DNA of 54,984 nt from Patescibacteria group bacterium (lineage in GTDB: Bacteria > Patescibacteriota > Minisyncoccia > Ryanbacterales > GWA2-47-10b), in contig JBBTQY010000009.1 in assembly GCA_038065475.1 (NCBI GenBank), positions 1 to 54,984 of the forward strand. Reading direction: 5' to 3'. This document shows positions 45,331 to 54,984 of the stretch, piece by piece; position 1 is the first letter of the stretch, and the number at the start of each line of letters is the position of its first letter. The position numbers and the translations under genes were made by a program. Under the pieces are notes generated by a model. The model had not been told where the DNA came from. It did no database searches and saw nothing but the letters and a program-made list of their open reading frames with translations.

Positions 45331-45633
45331 TTATACGCGCGATGCAGTAAAAAGATCGGCAAATTTTAGTTTCAAGATAACAAAAAGATAAATGATTTCA
45401 ACAATGCCCAATGTATTGAGAACCAGCAGCACGATAAACCATCTACCCTGCTCACGACGGGCAGCATGCCACAACGCGAGTCCCTTCCAAAAAATACTCC
45501 AAATCATAAGCGGCAGGATCACCGGAACGAACCAGGAGGGAGACTGCATACCAAAATTTTGTATCATGTAGTTCATATCTGTAAGTATATCATGACTAGA
45601 AAAAAGGTAACGCCTGTAACACCTCGTACGCAT
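45331..45633 (-). CDS. Small three-TM membrane protein
   Basis: 100 aa and hydrophobic. It overlaps the DedA-like gene by 38 nt, so it may start at an internal Met. Confidence 0.4.
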   Translation of the reverse strand: MRTRCYRRYLFSSHDILTDMNYMIQNFGMQSPSWFVPVILPLMIWSIFWKGLALWHAARREQGRWFIVLLVLNTLGIVEIIYLFVILKLKFADLFTASRV

Positions 45634-46174
45634 GAGCGGCTATGAGGGCAAGCGCCACATTAAATATAAGATTTCCTAATCCAAGTGGGATGATCACACG
45701 CCAAAAAGGATAATGCAGAAAACCCATGGGAATCGTGATCACATCGTTTGAAAATGGCAGGCACGAGCCAAAGAGAAGAAAAAAAAATGGCAATAATTTT
45801 GGGTACTTATCTTCTAAGACAGAGAGTTTTTGCAACGCCGTCTGTAGTCGATGAGGCATGAGCAACCTGCCCTGGTAGCCAATATAATAGGAAGTCGAAT
45901 CGCCGAGCATGACACCAAGTGCCGTCACCCCACCCAATACAAATGGATTGAGCCCGCCAGTAGCCAACGCAACCAACACCAAATGATACGGGATGCCGCT
46001 GAAAGTAGTAAGCCCGCCCGCGAGAGCAAGAACAAAAATAAGGCCATACGCGTTCTCAACTCCGACAAAACCGATAACACTCTCAGGCGATGAATAGTAG
46101 AAAATAAGTGAGAACGTGACAAAAAACAGTATTGGCACAATTCGCGGCAGGTAGGTAAGAAATTTATTTTTCAA
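45596..46174 (-). CDS. DedA/TVP38 (VTT-domain) family membrane protein
   Basis: Multi-TM protein with a G-rich re-entrant region (GGVTALGVMLGDSTSYYIGYQGR). Confidence 0.65.
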   Translation of the reverse strand: MKNKFLTYLPRIVPILFFVTFSLIFYYSSPESVIGFVGVENAYGLIFVLALAGGLTTFSGIPYHLVLVALATGGLNPFVLGGVTALGVMLGDSTSYYIGYQGRLLMPHRLQTALQKLSVLEDKYPKLLPFFFLLFGSCLPFSNDVITIPMGFLHYPFWRVIIPLGLGNLIFNVALALIAAHAYEVLQALPFF

Positions 46175-46505
46175 AGCGTGCGGGCCCGTCTTCTATAATC
46201 CGAATAAGACCGGCGCGTATATGCCCGCTCGGAGTGGATTCGCCCACGATCATGACGCGGTCACCCACCTGCAGACCGTCATCTTGCTCTTGCCTACCTC
46301 GGCGTACAACGGTTTCTTGGCCAACATCTATAGTGCGCTCACCTACTTTTATATCAGAGACAACAAAACCGCCCTCGGTCATGCGGAGAACCTCACCGAA
46401 ATATTGACTACCCTGCCAACGCAGATAGTTGTGTACCCCCATCAACAGCAAAATGAGCGCACCGAGCATAATCAATATATATCGAGTGCGTAAATATTTT
46501 TTCAT
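46164..46505 (-). CDS. Hypothetical protein with N-terminal TM anchor
   Basis: 113 aa. It overlaps both neighbours by 4-11 nt. Confidence 0.4.
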   Translation of the reverse strand: MKKYLRTRYILIMLGALILLLMGVHNYLRWQGSQYFGEVLRMTEGGFVVSDIKVGERTIDVGQETVVRRGRQEQDDGLQVGDRVMIVGESTPSGHIRAGLIRIIEDGPARFEK

Positions 46506-47617
46506 ACCATCTGTTTTTTTATTATTTTTATACTGCCCCTATCTGCATCGACCTCGATAACATCACCATCTTTTAAAACTTGCGTAGCATTTCCTGCACC
46601 AACAATGCATGGCTTTTTGAGTTCGCGCGCAATGATTGATGCATGACTCAAAATACCACCTCGATTGGTCACGATGGCACCTGCTTTTTTCATTATGGGG
46701 ATAAATCGCACATCAGTATTGTCGGCTACCAAAATATTATTTTCATCAAAAATAACCGATGAAATATTTTCTGGATCTATAATGCGCGCGATGCCCTCTA
46801 CCCTACCAGGAAAAGCTGGCATACCTACAACGTCACCCGTTTTTTCTTTAAATGAGCCTGGGGTTGTAATGTATTTTGCAAGCAAACGATTGTAATCAAT
46901 GATATAAGTGATATCGCCCGGCCAAACAGTGGTTTCAAAATAACCGCAAAGATAATCATGGGAAAATTTCGCATCGAGCGATGTTATGAGCTCCGTCTGC
47001 TTATTTTTGTCAGGTACATAAATAAGCTCGAGCATTTTTATTATTTCACGTTCGGCCTCTAAATCTCGCTCATTCCATTCAAAATTGTGAAAATCAAAAC
47101 GAAATCGAAATACTTTTGACTGCGTATTGCCGTGTGTTAATTGGACAGCCAACCCTCTAACTATTTCTCCAAAAATCACATCCTCTTTGACAACAAAGAT
47201 AGCAGACCATAAAAGTTCATCAGTGTGCGGGCAGACAAATGCACGATACTCATCAGGGTTGATATCTTGCTTTAAAAACCAATTTGTATAGCATTCGCGA
47301 AGAGTAAGGCCGCGATTGCGAATTTTGGGAAGATCGTCTCGCCGGGGCACCAGGCGTATTGCGCAAGGCTCGTCCCCCCTTTCTTCAAGGAGTTTTGTAA
47401 ACCGTGGAGATTTCTCAACCAATTCCCTTGCAGGAAATTCTTCCGGCCGTTCGTATGCCAAACCAATGGCCTGATACAATGCTTCGAGCCGCTCAACCTT
47501 GTAGTTATCTTCTTTGCGAAATGCCTCGGATTCTTTCTCTTCTCCAATCTGGGCAAACCATTCAGTCATCGAAGGCTGAAATTCATTAACTACAGGTTTA
47601 TTTTTATTATCACTCAT
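46502..47617 (-). CDS. PEP-utilizer (phospho-histidine swivel) domain protein, paralogue C; unique ~270-aa N-terminal region
   Basis: C-terminal MKKAGAIVTNRGGILSHASIIARELKKPCIVGAGNATQVLKDGDVIEVDADRG matches the PEP-utilizers mobile domain, including the catalytic His. Confidence 0.75.
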   Translation of the reverse strand: MSDNKNKPVVNEFQPSMTEWFAQIGEEKESEAFRKEDNYKVERLEALYQAIGLAYERPEEFPARELVEKSPRFTKLLEERGDEPCAIRLVPRRDDLPKIRNRGLTLRECYTNWFLKQDINPDEYRAFVCPHTDELLWSAIFVVKEDVIFGEIVRGLAVQLTHGNTQSKVFRFRFDFHNFEWNERDLEAEREIIKMLELIYVPDKNKQTELITSLDAKFSHDYLCGYFETTVWPGDITYIIDYNRLLAKYITTPGSFKEKTGDVVGMPAFPGRVEGIARIIDPENISSVIFDENNILVADNTDVRFIPIMKKAGAIVTNRGGILSHASIIARELKKPCIVGAGNATQVLKDGDVIEVDADRGSIKIIKKQMV

Positions 47618-48680
47618 GTTTCTTCAAGATTTTTACAATTCCATTATCTGCATCAACTTCAACCATATCGCCATCCCCAAGAGCTTGGACCGCATTTCCC
47701 AGCCCAACAATACAAGGAATATTCAATTCACGACTTACAATGGCAGCGTGCGATAATAGTCCTCCTTGGTTGGCCAATATTGCACCGGCTTTTTTACAAG
47801 CAGGCATAAGTTCTGGAGAGGTGGTTTCTGCAACCAAAACGTCTCCGTCTTCCATTTCGGCAAATAATTTTGTTAACATAGAAAAATCAGAATAATATGA
47901 TGGGGGGAATACTTTGACTTTACCAGTTACAATACCTTTATTAGCGATAGTACCTTTTATCTCTTTTGCTTCAGTAATAGTAAGAAAATTAACAAAATTT
48001 TTTCTCAATTCCTTGCCTTCTCCATAAGTAATGGCTTCTCCATCACCCTGCATAAAGAAAAATTCTTTTCTTTTTACAATAGATTTTGGTTGAACTTTCT
48101 TATCAAGAAATAAATCTGCAATCTCGTTGAGCGAATAAAAATTCAAGTCTGTAAGTGGAGTATTAAATTTTTCAGAAATCGTATTTAGGAATCTGCTTAA
48201 ATAATTCCTATCTTCAAATATAAGAGAGTTAAGCACAAGTCTCCCATCATTTTTTATCTGTTCAAAAGTTTTGAGATTTTTATTAATAACATCGTTTGGT
48301 TTTACTGTTGCGATTCCGTCTGTATAGAAAAACTCTGTTTTTGAATAAAATTTCCATAGATCCGCCACAGTACAAAGAAATCGTTTTGCGTTCTCCTCTG
48401 TAAGATTGCTGCCGAGTATTTCTTCAAAAGTTGCCTTTGATTCCATGATATAAATTCTGAAATCGCCCTCGAAACGATTAAAATTCTCTTCACTACTAAA
48501 CATAGCGACTCCATCTTTCATTGTGTTTTGGACCACTTCCTTTGGTATGTAACTTGTCCAAAGTCCATTGTCACAAATTAAAAGACATCGAAGAGTCTTA
48601 TAGTGTTGAGCAAAAAGATCAGACGCCAGATATCTTAATTCGATCTGAAATAGTTTTTGGTAGTCTTTTGGATCACCCAT
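47610..48680 (-). CDS. PEP-utilizer swivel domain protein, paralogue B; unique ~255-aa N-terminal region, very AT-rich
   Basis: C-terminal CKKAGAILANQGGLLSHAAIVSRELNIPCIVGLGNAVQALGDGDMVEVDADNG. Confidence 0.75.
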   Translation of the reverse strand: MGDPKDYQKLFQIELRYLASDLFAQHYKTLRCLLICDNGLWTSYIPKEVVQNTMKDGVAMFSSEENFNRFEGDFRIYIMESKATFEEILGSNLTEENAKRFLCTVADLWKFYSKTEFFYTDGIATVKPNDVINKNLKTFEQIKNDGRLVLNSLIFEDRNYLSRFLNTISEKFNTPLTDLNFYSLNEIADLFLDKKVQPKSIVKRKEFFFMQGDGEAITYGEGKELRKNFVNFLTITEAKEIKGTIANKGIVTGKVKVFPPSYYSDFSMLTKLFAEMEDGDVLVAETTSPELMPACKKAGAILANQGGLLSHAAIVSRELNIPCIVGLGNAVQALGDGDMVEVDADNGIVKILKKHE

Positions 48681-48682
48681 TT

Positions 48683-50083
48683 TTATATTTTTCTAACGAT
48701 TCCATTATCAGCATCAACTTCAACAAGATCACCGTCTTTCAAAACTTGAGTTGCAATTTTTGTACCGATAATACAGGGTATATTCAATTCACGAGATACT
48801 ATGGCTGCATGACATGTAATACCGCCCTCATTGGTCACGACGGCTCCAGCTCTTTTCATTAAAGGGACAAATTCAGGCCTTGTCATACTTGTGACCAGTA
48901 CATCTCCCTGTCGGAATCCCCTATCATCGCGGGGATCAAACACCACGCGCACAATACCTTGGACATTTCCCCGGCATGCAATCTGGCCTTTTAACTCATC
49001 GTTTTTTAGAACAGTATGACCGAGCATCTCTTCAAACTGCGACACCGCTGATGCAAAGTCACAATTTTCAGTTTCATATGATAAATCGGGATTCGCCATA
49101 TAAATACAGCCGTCCGCACGTCTTTCGATATTTTCTTTGTTCACTAAAAGATAGTCAATGCCGCGCATATATTCGTAAAGTAAAACGTACGGAGCACTTT
49201 TTATATCCACTCGAGCCCGGCCGAGCATTGCTATTGAAACTTCAGCACACATAGCCTGGATTTGAGCGATTGGATCTTTTCTCTCGTCTCTCATAAGCAT
49301 TACAAGTTGAGCATACTCGGCAATCTTTCTTGCTGTGGAATCCAGCGTCGAAAGCCATTGGATATACTCCGTCTCTTTACTCTTTATAGTTAGCAGGATT
49401 TGTTCATATTCTCTTTGTCTTTCATCAAAATGTTCTTTGATAGCTTCGATTTCAGAGATAATTTCACTTTCTTTTTTTGTCCAAAAATAGTCAGTAAATA
49501 TAAATTTTGCCTGCCGGACAACATCGCCCTTACCAGAAGATATCAAATCAAGTAGTTTTTTTAATCGACGACCCTCAAACGAGATAAAGAAGGCCTCGGT
49601 TGCACGCTCCCATACGAAATCAAGCTCAACTTTATGTGCAAGGCCAATAACACTCAGTATTTTTTCATAATCAACATTTTCAATATAAATAGTCTTCCTC
49701 ACAAGTTCTACAAAAAGAGCATTGATGTTGTATGTATAGCTTTGAAGCTCTTTATCAGAAAGTTTGCTAAGATCCGTATTCATCATTCTCTCATAGAGTT
49801 CCCGAGAGTGAGCCTCGAATACATCGTACTCATTTTTGAGATCTTGAATTGATACTGCCCCATTAAAATAATCTTGGAATCTATCTGTAGCAATGGCAAT
49901 ATATTCTTTTTCATTGACCGCCATATATGTATCGCGGCCCTTCGTAATACAGAAAATATGTAGCGGGTGAGAAGTGTCATTCCACGTTACAACAAGAAAA
50001 AGTGGGGAAATAGCAGCGCGCACCGAGAAAACAGAGTCTTTCCCAACAACTTTTTTAAACTCTTCGATTAGTTTATAAGTCAT
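48683..50083 (-). CDS. PEP-utilizer swivel domain protein, paralogue A; unique ~365-aa N-terminal region
   Basis: C-terminal MKRAGAVVTNEGGITCHAAIVSRELNIPCIIGTKIATQVLKDGDLVEVDADNG. Confidence 0.75.
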   Translation of the reverse strand: MTYKLIEEFKKVVGKDSVFSVRAAISPLFLVVTWNDTSHPLHIFCITKGRDTYMAVNEKEYIAIATDRFQDYFNGAVSIQDLKNEYDVFEAHSRELYERMMNTDLSKLSDKELQSYTYNINALFVELVRKTIYIENVDYEKILSVIGLAHKVELDFVWERATEAFFISFEGRRLKKLLDLISSGKGDVVRQAKFIFTDYFWTKKESEIISEIEAIKEHFDERQREYEQILLTIKSKETEYIQWLSTLDSTARKIAEYAQLVMLMRDERKDPIAQIQAMCAEVSIAMLGRARVDIKSAPYVLLYEYMRGIDYLLVNKENIERRADGCIYMANPDLSYETENCDFASAVSQFEEMLGHTVLKNDELKGQIACRGNVQGIVRVVFDPRDDRGFRQGDVLVTSMTRPEFVPLMKRAGAVVTNEGGITCHAAIVSRELNIPCIIGTKIATQVLKDGDLVEVDADNGIVRKI

Positions 50084-50085
50084 AC

Positions 50086-51075
50086 TTAGACATTCTCACC
50101 CTTCAGTGTTGTAATTGGCCTCGATTGTACAATATAGAATTTGCCATCGGTATACGCCCATTCAATGTCAACAGGAAAGCCATAATGATTCTCGATCTTC
50201 ATAACGAGTTTTGAGAGTTCTTCTATTTCCTTTTCTGCCAGCACCTGACTCTTGGCTTTCTCTGGCAAAATATCTCGCCATTCGTTACCGCCACCTTCAA
50301 CGCGATAGAGGGCGCGATTTTGTTCGTTAACGTTGATATCAATAATTTTAAAAGGATTCTTTTCTGCCACGTAGCTATCGGGGGTTACTGAGCCCGACAC
50401 GATAGCCTCACCAAGACCGAAGCCCGCTTCAACAATAAGCTGGTTTCTATCTTGGGTAACGGGATGCACGGAAAAAGCAATGCCGGAGATTTCACTTTCA
50501 ACCATTTTTTGAACAACCACTGCCACAGAAATCTTTTGCTTGTGCAGATCTTTTTCAAAGCGATAAAAAATAGCGCGGGGTGTAAAAAGCGACGCCCAAC
50601 ACTTTTGCACGTTTTGCAAAAGAGTTTCCTGGGTCGTATTTAAATAACTTTCAAGTTGCCCTGCCCAAGCAGCAGATGAACCATCTTCAGCAGTAGCACT
50701 TGAGCGCACGGCTACATACTCTGTGCCGAGTTCTACAAAATGCTTTTGTATATCTTCGGCAATATCTTTTGGCATTTCTGCTCGCAAAATCAGTGCTTGA
50801 ATTTTTGCTGATGCTGCTTCTATCGTATGAATCTCTTTATAATTAACGGCATCGAGAGCTGCTGCAATCTCTATATTGAGATCGGTCTTTTTGAGAAAAA
50901 TATCAAATGTTTCTGATAACACGACGAAACCCGGTGGGATCGGAATACCTGCCCGCGTCATCTCACCAAGTGAGGCTCCCTTGCCTCCAGCGATATCTAC
51001 ATCGGACTTTGAAAGCTCTGAGAACGTCTTGATATACATTTTTATATTGTTAAGCGAGCAATACGCCGCCGTCAA
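50086..51075 (-). CDS. PPDK_N-type nucleotide-binding (ATP-grasp) kinase module, PEP synthase/rifampin phosphotransferase N-domain-like. The likely start is MYIKTFSEL near 51039
   Basis: DIAGGKGASLGEMTRAGIPIPPGFVV...VAVRSSATAEDGSSAAWAGQ...VVVQKMVESEISGIAFSVHPVT...GLGEAIVSGSVTPD...DIEWAYTDGKFYIVQSRPIT is the hallmark of the PPDK_N ATP-binding domain. Confidence 0.8.
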   Translation of the reverse strand: MTAAYCSLNNIKMYIKTFSELSKSDVDIAGGKGASLGEMTRAGIPIPPGFVVLSETFDIFLKKTDLNIEIAAALDAVNYKEIHTIEAASAKIQALILRAEMPKDIAEDIQKHFVELGTEYVAVRSSATAEDGSSAAWAGQLESYLNTTQETLLQNVQKCWASLFTPRAIFYRFEKDLHKQKISVAVVVQKMVESEISGIAFSVHPVTQDRNQLIVEAGFGLGEAIVSGSVTPDSYVAEKNPFKIIDINVNEQNRALYRVEGGGNEWRDILPEKAKSQVLAEKEIEELSKLVMKIENHYGFPVDIEWAYTDGKFYIVQSRPITTLKGENV

Positions 51076-54653: not shown

Positions 54654-54984
54654 TCATTGTACAACAAAACTAAACATCATGCCGCTCTCAAGATGCTCGG
54701 AGATGTGACAGTGAGCCATCCACTCGCCGGGATTTGAGGGGTCAAGAATGATATCAACCGTTTCTCCAGATCTTACCAAGGTCGTATCCTTCCATACGAG
54801 ATTAGACTGCCCGACCCCGTTGCGAGCAACCACCAAAAATCGCTGACCATGGAAGTGGATTGGGTGCTGCATGGGATGCATAGAGCGTGGGTCGTTGAAA
54901 ATACGAATCTTGACAGGCTTGCCCTTGGCAAACGACCAATCAATATCCATATTTGCCTTGCCCGTATCTTGGTCAACGATTTTC
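54654..54984 (-). CDS. C-terminal cupredoxin domain of a multicopper oxidase (laccase/CueO-like). The gene is 5'-truncated at the window edge
   Basis: HPMHLHG-type motif (HPIHFHG) and HCHISEHLESGMM (the HCH-x3-H-x4-M type 1 and trinuclear copper ligands). Confidence 0.7.
   Translation of the reverse strand, partial: KIVDQDTGKANMDIDWSFAKGKPVKIRIFNDPRSMHPMQHPIHFHGQRFLVVARNGVGQSNLVWKDTTLVRSGETVDIILDPSNPGEWMAHCHISEHLESGMMFSFVVQ

Follow-up and report, generated by a model that had tools for sequence, protein, structure and literature searches.

The source organism of the window, as the whole 54,984-nt stretch of DNA analysed here is termed, is an ultra-small groundwater bacterium (Patescibacteria). 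The window carries an operon of one stand-alone ATP-grasp gene (K), followed by three phosphocarrier genes (A, B, and C), all of them on the minus strand. The features are as follows:

50086-51039, minus strand: K, PPDK_N-type ATP-grasp nucleotide-binding subunit; 317 aa from the ATG at 51039 (gene call of the source contig)
50086-51075, minus strand: K as a TTG ORF, the longer start alternative
48683-50083, minus strand: A, 466 aa; long RPH-type acceptor domain and C-terminal His-swivel
49004-50083, minus strand: acceptor domain of A (residues ~1-360)
49277-49291, minus strand: invariant R265-D266-x-R268-K269 motif of A
48809-48811, minus strand: His425 codon of A, within the His-swivel (residues ~361-466)
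47610-48680, minus strand: B, 356 aa; short (~240 aa) acceptor domain and His-swivel
47961-48680, minus strand: acceptor domain of B
48240-48254, minus strand: codons of K143 (invariant) and R147 (near-invariant) of B
47748-47750, minus strand: His311 codon of B
46502-47617, minus strand: C, 371 aa; divergent ATP-grasp-fold N-domain and His-swivel
46832-47617, minus strand: N-domain of C (residues ~1-262)
46643-46645, minus strand: His325 codon of C

The earlier note on this DNA had described four tightly packed genes, and all of the ORFs were indeed found at its coordinates, with junctions of +2 nt between K and A, +2 nt between A and B, and -8 nt between B and C. The lengths of the three N-terminal regions are corrected to ~360, 240, and 260 aa from the 365, 255, and 270 aa given previously. 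A scan for promoters and terminators returned counts at or below shuffle expectation and does not inform the operon boundaries, and none of the four proteins matched the anti-phage defence models of PADLOC.

K displays PF01326 (PPDK_N) as its sole Pfam domain, with a score of 327.2 bits (E 1.5e-97; gathering cut-off of 27 bits) over profile positions 2-314 of 328, and is the stand-alone PPDK_N subunit that had been proposed. Its best NCBIfam matches are to the N-terminal thirds of the models of PEP synthase and of rifampin phosphotransferase (RPH), at scores far under the whole-protein cut-offs. The motifs GGKG (Lys20), AVRSSATAED, and DIEW...IVQSRP can be read from the sequence, and their equivalence to K22/R117 of RPH and E323/Q335/R337 of PPDK is based on these motifs and on the Pfam alignment rather than on structural superposition. 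Pfam detects no PPDK_N domain in A, B, or C; the ATP-grasp and the acceptor-plus-swivel portions are separate, adjacent polypeptides.

The three remaining proteins each carry PF00391 as their only Pfam domain, at the C-terminus (85.6-90.2 bits, E 1e-24 to 1e-26; gathering cut-off of 23.1 bits; residues 277-347 in B). That this swivel domain is the part they have in common is borne out by pairwise BLASTP, in which similarity was confined to the last ~115 residues (43-52% identity, E 3e-29 to 3e-33), with none detected among the N-terminal regions. The catalytic histidine (H425 in A, H311 in B, H325 in C), on whose presence the earlier note had made its proposal depend, is invariant in the family alignments (93 of 93, 95 of 95, and 118 of 118 sequences, respectively). 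As for the GG-x-SHA motif reported for all three proteins, the histidine holds, but A reads CHA in place of SHA. The T/S-x-x-G-G-x-x-x-H swivel motif of two-component dikinases (PMC12167813) is present in A (T417...H425) and in C (T317...H325); B of this locus has A303 at the Thr position, which is occupied by Thr in 91 of 95 orthologues.

The AF2 model of A is confident (pLDDT ~94), and by structure comparison its RIF-binding-type domain and its swivel both resemble those of RPH, the closest structural relative of A, at a structure-based identity of 13-15%. The acceptor domain of A is homologous to the rifampin-binding domain of RPH, and its invariant R265-D266-x-R268-K269 motif sits 101 residues ahead of the swivel. 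Since this is the same offset as that of the RPH catalytic residues R666-E667-x-x-K670 (PMC4844700), taken from the NCBIfam rph alignment, the two motifs occupy corresponding positions. When the three family alignments were searched as profiles against PDB sequences, the swivel alone matched, with the addition, in the case of B, of the end of the RPH acceptor domain: the B profile matches residues 699-866 of RPH-Lm, past the swivel and into the end of the RIF-binding domain. Direct comparison of the A and B profiles gives a probability of only 16%; hhalign links B to two module clusters, cl5 (97.5%) and cl0 (97.4%), and cl0 to A (99.1%). Judging from these profiles, B is probably a short, remote member of the A/RPH acceptor superfamily, connected to it indirectly via the module clusters, and the two proteins probably carry RPH/HpeH-type helical acceptor domains, in a long form (A) and a short form (B). 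The three N-terminal regions had been regarded as unrelated; this probably does not apply to A and B, which profile and structure comparisons assign to a single remote superfamily that also includes the acceptor domain of RPH, but remains valid for C, whose fold is different.

C is also modeled with confidence (pLDDT ~94), and its N-domain is predicted to adopt an ATP-grasp fold, which matches several unrelated ATP-grasp enzymes at the level of the fold and is not homologous to the rifampin-binding domain of RPH. The domain falls below recognition by PF01326, and hhalign against the K/PPDK_N profile yielded no signal, global mode included, so that the ATP-grasp assignment is derived from the predicted structure. 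Its conserved residues, namely R88, the K98/R100/R102 loop, and E228-x13-D241-x2-R244, bear a motif-level resemblance to the E-x12-Q-x-R of K. The C module as a whole (ATP-grasp-like N-domain plus swivel) has no counterpart among the Pfam, NCBIfam, and PADLOC models searched, its swivel itself being PF00391. C appears to represent a small, new family, whose N-domain, given that motif resemblance, may bind nucleotide and Mg2+, and the confidence of the predicted fold makes the module directly testable.

The layout of one kinase and many modules recurs in CPR bacteria and DPANN archaea, with 1-9 modules per K, and the one-plus-three arrangement described in the earlier note is a single case of a variable 1+N array. 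K, A, B, and C each possess their own conserved full-length orthologue family, and the module families are conserved in numerous CPR lineages and in DPANN at 40-77% identity. Family C and the swivel motif served as the seeds of the locus sample, whose array frequencies are therefore biased; within this sample, K is present in at most one copy in all 58 CPR/DPANN-type loci, 22 of which hold at least three modules, K lies upstream of every same-strand module in 18 of 20 loci, and C has no adjacent K in 7 of the 20 loci that contain it. Single-chain fusions of K to A (P0065, P0075), to B (P0184, P0201, P0236; 590-619 aa), and to C (~10 representatives, such as P0383 and P0398) occur in other genomes, as do polyproteins: P0378, of 1390 aa, is organized as K-cl4-SW-B-SW-C-SW (cl4 being another acceptor-domain type and SW the swivel), P0412 reaches 2648 aa, and a 3768-aa ORF at locus L022 unites one K with nine swivels. 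C is usually the last module of K-headed polyproteins (next-to-last in P0412), and K+C constitutes the minimal recurrent pair, which persists in genomes of Saccharibacteria size. Arrays take up as much as 11 kb of ~1 Mb genomes, about 1% of the genome. The fusions and K-(module)n polyproteins support the sharing of one kinase, and with it the suggestion, already made in the earlier note, of an RPH-like logic that is split between subunits. No description of multi-module CPR/DPANN arrays was found in the literature beyond a CPR resistome survey that counts rph-like hits (PMC8651080); the novelty appears to lie in the array of several acceptors and in module type C; two-component relatives (HpeHI, CreHI, PpsAB) are known.

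The interpretation that we favor, with a probability of approximately 0.7, is that K, A, B, and C are the parts of a modular, ATP-dependent dikinase with multiple acceptors, of the RPH/two-component (HpeHI, CreHI, PpsAB) kind. K would bind ATP, and the swivel of each module would dock on K in turn, its catalytic histidine becoming (pyro)phosphorylated; the swivel would then return to its own N-terminal acceptor domain, where the phosphoryl group would pass to the bound substrate. The most likely substrates of A and B would be small molecules with a hydroxyl group, a different one for each. The acceptor domain of C keeps an Arg/Lys cluster and an E...D..R arrangement, and its acceptor would most likely be a phosphate-bearing, nucleotide-like compound.

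The systems that most resemble this one are HpeHI, CreHI, and the phenylphosphate synthase PpsAB, which likewise have a separate ATP-grasp subunit (HpeI, comparable to K), a second subunit in which an RPH-type acceptor domain precedes the C-terminal His-swivel (HpeH, comparable to A and probably to B), the T/S-x-x-G-G-x-x-x-H motif, and an ATP-to-His-to-acceptor logic that we infer here from sequence. In HpeHI, replacement of the histidine by alanine abolishes activity, and HpeH alone can move phosphate between substrates (PMC12167813). HpeH, CreH, and PpsA, however, are ~70 kDa proteins of ~45% mutual identity (PMC12167813), whereas A, B, and C measure 356-466 aa and match PRK08296 through the swivel only. 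Their acceptor domains therefore have no detectable sequence similarity to the HpeH/PpsA-alpha models, and the three proteins fall outside this subfamily despite the same architecture. The acceptor domains are also shorter (~240-360 aa, versus ~530 aa in HpeH), that of module C is ATP-grasp-like, one ATP-grasp gene accompanies three acceptor/swivel genes (elsewhere 1-9, or fused), and the hosts are CPR/DPANN rather than aromatic-degrading Proteobacteria or Actinobacteria. RPH, in turn, has one chain and one acceptor (PDB 5HV1/5FBS; PMC4844700), and what is one protein there is here split and multiplied. A functional analogy can be drawn with Enzyme I of the PTS and its phosphorelay, in which a single energy-coupling entry point serves several substrate-specific branches and the phospho-His swivel domain is homologous; here, however, the donor would be ATP via an ATP-grasp domain and not PEP, and HPr, EIIA, EIIB, and a membrane permease are absent.

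The kinship of A with RPH evokes the idea that every module phosphorylates and thereby inactivates its own toxic small molecule, in the way RPH inactivates rifampin. Such an antibiotic or xenobiotic inactivation system would be in keeping with a family of small-molecule dikinases that includes RPH and of which some members act on antibiotics (PMC4844700, PMC12167813), with the counting of rph-like hits in resistome surveys of CPR, and with a cluster GC that lies below that of the flanking sequence and would fit horizontal acquisition. The scores, however, are far under the cut-off of the NCBIfam RPH equivalog (NF041857; K reaches 294 bits, and A, B, and C reach 51-60 bits, of the required 999), the C domain is ATP-grasp-like and not drug-binding, and no resistance or efflux genes are conserved near the arrays. 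In addition, the conservation of the module families over so many lineages, the persistence of K+C in very small genomes, and the share of ~1 Mb genomes given over to arrays speak against this explanation, which is unlikely. The distribution in minimal genomes rather argues for a housekeeping or salvage role, in which several scavenged metabolites would be charged from one ATP site, than for a dedicated antibiotic-resistance locus.

Values of GC are 0.350 in B (GC3 0.272), 0.395 in A, 0.413 in C, and 0.434 in K, against 0.46-0.52 in the flanking genes and 0.470 in the window. B is thus strikingly AT-rich, as had been pointed out, but the independent acquisition of modules deduced from it lacks support, since low GC extends over the entire cluster and arrays throughout CPR/DPANN combine the same module families. 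The neighboring SDR and HI0933 genes, which the earlier note offered as possible members of the locus, have no homologues beside such arrays. In BLAST searches of 79 related loci, SDR, HI0933, MurA, DUF5666, and DedA were all rejected as partners, with no co-located homologues at any CPR/DPANN array locus; SDR matches occurred only in four loci (L049, L058, L069, L081), all of which lack a multi-module array and none of which is of the K-headed CPR/DPANN kind. HAD (7 loci), NUDIX (4), and histidine-phosphatase-like (3) genes recur weakly in an otherwise unconserved neighborhood, and genomic context offers no clue to the substrate.

Module C raises a further issue, given that its own ATP-grasp-like domain and its occurrence without an adjacent K suggest that it might be self-charging. 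It could then be an autonomous ATP-grasp+His autokinase, charged from a nucleotide and acting as a regulatory or protein kinase, with K serving only A and B. VadK (Rv1127c), a truncated PPDK autokinase in which an ATP-grasp domain precedes a phospho-His domain, provides a precedent (PMC13400623), and the spacing of the conserved residues of C recalls the E/Q/R of the PPDK_N domain of K. The ATP-grasp domain of VadK, however, is a recognizable ATP-binding PPDK_N, whereas that of C escapes PF01326 and has no profile similarity to K; moreover, C is found together with a genuine PPDK_N domain or fused downstream of one, forms with K the minimal pair, usually ends K-headed polyproteins, and has its N-domain exactly where RPH has its acceptor domain. 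An autokinase role for C is consequently improbable.

A bolder proposal, which we consider doubtful, is that of a hub-and-spoke hallmark of CPR/DPANN, in which one ATP-grasp subunit charges up to nine modules and the K+C pair converts ATP + NMP/NDP to NTP. The arrays may then stand in for separate kinases, each dedicated to a scavenged metabolite, and in the conserved K+C core one swivel histidine may couple two ATP-grasp sites and hand (pyro)phosphoryl groups from ATP to a second nucleotide, in what may be the first PPDK partial reaction, reversed, on a second nucleotide site. If true, nucleotides would be salvaged or activated by a route not known before.

Finally, the notion of a fragmented or decaying PEP synthase/PPDK pseudogene array, which draws on the facts that the top-scoring matches of K and the swivels are to models of bona fide PEP synthases and to archaeal PEP synthase structures, that both lie nearest to PpsA in sequence, and that they share its His-swivel mechanism, is refuted by the lack of any Pfam match to the PEP-utilizers_C (PEP/pyruvate) TIM barrel in the four proteins or neighboring genes, by PRK06464 (PEP synthase) scores of at most 337 bits against a cut-off of 598, by an acceptor domain that precedes the swivel as in RPH and does not follow it as in PpsA, and by intact ORFs with conserved full-length families, confident A and C models, and an invariant histidine, all of which uphold the split RPH-like dikinase of the earlier note.

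RPH-like dikinases of the two-component type did not gain recognition as a subfamily until 2025, and then only with a single acceptor subunit for each kinase. Organisms with minimal genomes from two domains of life conserve the layout reported here, whose genes current annotation wrongly labels "PEP synthase" or "PEP-utilizing enzyme". If the modules do phosphorylate distinct scavenged metabolites, they could fill gaps in the metabolic reconstruction of CPR and DPANN organisms, and would offer, ready-made in nature, a set of substrate modules that can be exchanged on a single kinase.

The operon in the window consists of four packed open reading frames on the minus strand (46502-51075), with junctions of +2, +2 and -8 nt; the source is a 347-kb contig from a Hainich groundwater 0.1-um-fraction metagenome, and its NCBI protein labels are those of Patescibacteria. 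The four products are the following:

K, start ATG 51039, minus strand: stand-alone ATP-grasp protein, 317 aa by the source-contig gene call; PF01326 (PPDK_N) is its sole domain, at 327 bits
A, minus strand: swivel module, 466 aa; sole Pfam domain the C-terminal PF00391 (PEP-utilizers) swivel; catalytic H425
B, minus strand: swivel module, 356 aa; sole Pfam domain the C-terminal PF00391 swivel; catalytic H311
C, minus strand: swivel module, 371 aa; sole Pfam domain the C-terminal PF00391 swivel; catalytic H325

The swivels score 85-90 bits, and by BLASTP the similarity among A, B and C is confined to the last ~115 residues (43-52% identity). The reading frames, the HMM matches (PPDK_N only in K, swivel only in A, B and C), the BLASTP result and the catalytic His thus bear out the earlier note's description of an operon with one PPDK_N gene and three His-swivel paralogues; the His, whose possible absence had been raised, is invariant in all orthologues examined. 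Positions -6 and -2 from it are family-specific, being E/T in A (419/423), Q/L in B (305/309) and R/L in C (319/323). In PEP synthase and PPDK, a Thr near the catalytic His is a regulatory phosphorylation site, and this Thr is retained in family A only. Residue 303 of B (window 47772-47774) is Ala, at the position occupied in 91 of 95 orthologues by the Thr of the T-x-x-G-G-x-x-x-H motif; its equivalent in HpeH, from the two-component dikinase HpeHI, is S573, which hydrogen-bonds the His-orienting loop.

The conservation of this arrangement was surveyed by running HMMs for K, for the swivel and for each of the three N-domains over 79 related loci, all taken from GTDB species representatives. 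Because family C and swivel motifs served as seeds for the sample, array frequencies are indicative only: among 58 CPR/DPANN-type loci, at least two swivel modules occur in 32, at least three in 22 and at least five in 10, with a maximum of nine, and never more than one K per locus. Some MAG taxonomic labels (“uncultured Gammaproteobacteria”, “Planctomycetota”) may reflect binning or labelling errors. K lies upstream of every same-strand module in 18/20 loci, the acceptor domains cluster into at least eight recurrent types of two size classes, and Saccharibacteria carry a minimal K+C pair. A single K with several modules is a recurrent layout, but the number of modules varies, and the proposed “1+3” is one case of 1+N. 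Fusion of the array into one protein occurs in DPANN and in some bacteria, the longest forms being uninterrupted ORFs:

L022:8462-19765, Woesearchaeota MAG JAFGGS010000004.1: 3768 aa, one K then nine swivels
L025:8045-15118: K with 4-5 modules, 2000-2400 aa
L029:5535-11621: K with 4-5 modules, 2000-2400 aa
L042:7952-13942: K with 4-5 modules, 2000-2400 aa
L073:2-6040: K with 4-5 modules, 2000-2400 aa

These giant ORFs, with one PPDK_N followed by 4-9 units of acceptor domain plus swivel, are polyprotein versions of the operon. Shorter fusions join K to each module type of the window (K-A, 797-801 aa; K-B, 590-619 aa; K-C, ~10 representatives), and one 1390-aa protein, P0378, with the order K-cl4-SW-B-SW-C-SW (cl4 being another acceptor-domain cluster, SW the swivel), is essentially the window operon as a single chain. 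Such Rosetta-stone fusions are the strongest evidence that one ATP-grasp serves all modules; they further indicate that in C the acceptor slot is taken by the ATP-grasp-like domain.

The N-terminal regions of the modules had been described as unrelated, which holds for C, a different domain, but probably not for A and B. Directly compared, the A and B profiles match weakly (16% probability). The module clusters cl5 and cl0, in turn, match B at 97%, A at 99% and, weakly, the central domain of an actinobacterial protein like rifampin phosphotransferase (RPH) at 70%. Because the B family profile reaches RPH residues 699-866 and cl5/cl0 link B to A, the two most likely belong to a single superfamily of acceptor domains, A as its long form (~360-380 aa) and B as its short one (~245 aa). 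Residues were equated with those of RPH and PPDK by motif position rather than by superposed coordinates; on this basis, with the NCBIfam offset, the invariant K143 and near-invariant R147 of B fall at about RPH 665 and 669. Pfam, NCBIfam and profile comparisons show no similarity between the N-domain of C and PPDK_N; the domain retains R88 within an “AIRLV” strand, the loop residues K98, R100 and R102, and E228-x13-D241-x2-R244, which by motif position resemble the “AVRSS” and E-x12-Q-x-R of K. Family C is small: clustering of 1.84 billion proteins at 50% gives it 175 representatives. One locus (L014, 8826-11065) carries two adjoining C genes, a tandem duplication with no K within 10 kb, and P0366 (624 aa) has two C-type ATP-grasp-like domains followed by one single swivel.

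The closest characterised systems are the two-component dikinases HpeHI, CreHI and PpsAB; in HpeHI, the RPH-like ATP-grasp is a separate protein, HpeI, and an RPH-like acceptor domain is joined to a swivel in HpeH, replacement of the conserved swivel His of HpeH by Ala abolishes activity, and HpeH without HpeI transfers phosphate between substrates (PMC12167813). By analogy, K would (pyro)phosphorylate the three modules one after another on their swivel His, and every charged swivel would pass phosphate to an acceptor held by its own N-domain. The substrates of A and B are probably hydroxyl-bearing small molecules, and the acceptor of C is probably a phosphate-bearing, nucleotide-like compound. 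The main mechanistic rival, in which C would charge itself in the manner of the truncated PPDK autokinase VadK (Rv1127c; PMC13400623), is unlikely, being disfavoured by the K-C fusions. A fragmented PEP synthase array, also considered by the earlier note, is ruled out by the absence of the PEP/pyruvate TIM barrel from K, A, B, C and the proteins of neighbouring genes in Pfam/NCBIfam searches, by the full-length orthologue family that each module has in many CPR lineages (identities of 30-62% for A, 38-77% for B and 50-71% for C, the latter family also present in DPANN archaea and Saccharibacteria), and by confident AF2 models of C (pLDDT 93.9) and A (pLDDT 94.7). NCBIfam scores of all four proteins for PEP synthase, PPDK and RPH are far under whole-protein cut-offs.

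The suggestion that the flanking SDR and HI0933 flavoprotein genes belong to the locus did not survive comparison with related loci, where neither these nor MurA adjoin the arrays. Directly downstream on the minus strand (window 45331-46505) are three small membrane or unknown-function genes (DUF5666, VTT/DedA-family and DUF5652), likewise not conserved beside arrays in other loci. On the source contig, a few kb upstream and past the window end, lie genes for a cytochrome P450 and a multicopper oxidase with three domains (L001:1316-2503 and L001:3883-5430); the ORF at window 54654-54950 is the C-terminal part of the latter. O2-dependent enzymes are unusual in CPR genomes. Genes recurring weakly near arrays encode HAD (L011, L013, L030, L043, L050, L052, L053), NUDIX (L011, L015, L017, L051) and histidine-phosphatase-like proteins (L005, L023, L024), a recurrence that might point to products that are phosphorylated or resemble nucleotides. 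NUDIX genes adjoin three C-containing loci, namely the K+C pairs of L011 and L015 and the lone C of L017.

The AT-richness of B had been read as a sign that modules were acquired independently. B does have the lowest GC, but the entire K-A-B-C cluster (46502-51039) is low (GC 0.35-0.43, GC3 0.27-0.39, against 0.46-0.52 in flanking genes and 0.47 in the window), which does not speak for acquisition module by module; its composition may reflect horizontal acquisition as one unit or different constraints on the genes.

A split RPH-like dikinase is already known, and a CPR resistome survey counted rph-like hits (PMC8651080). Since no description of these CPR/DPANN arrays was found in the literature, three features are rated as new: the multi-acceptor 1+N layout, its polyprotein versions and the module of type C. 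No PADLOC model matches K, A, B or C. That the arrays are conserved in minimal genomes of both CPR and DPANN favours a role in housekeeping or salvage over the inactivation of antibiotics.
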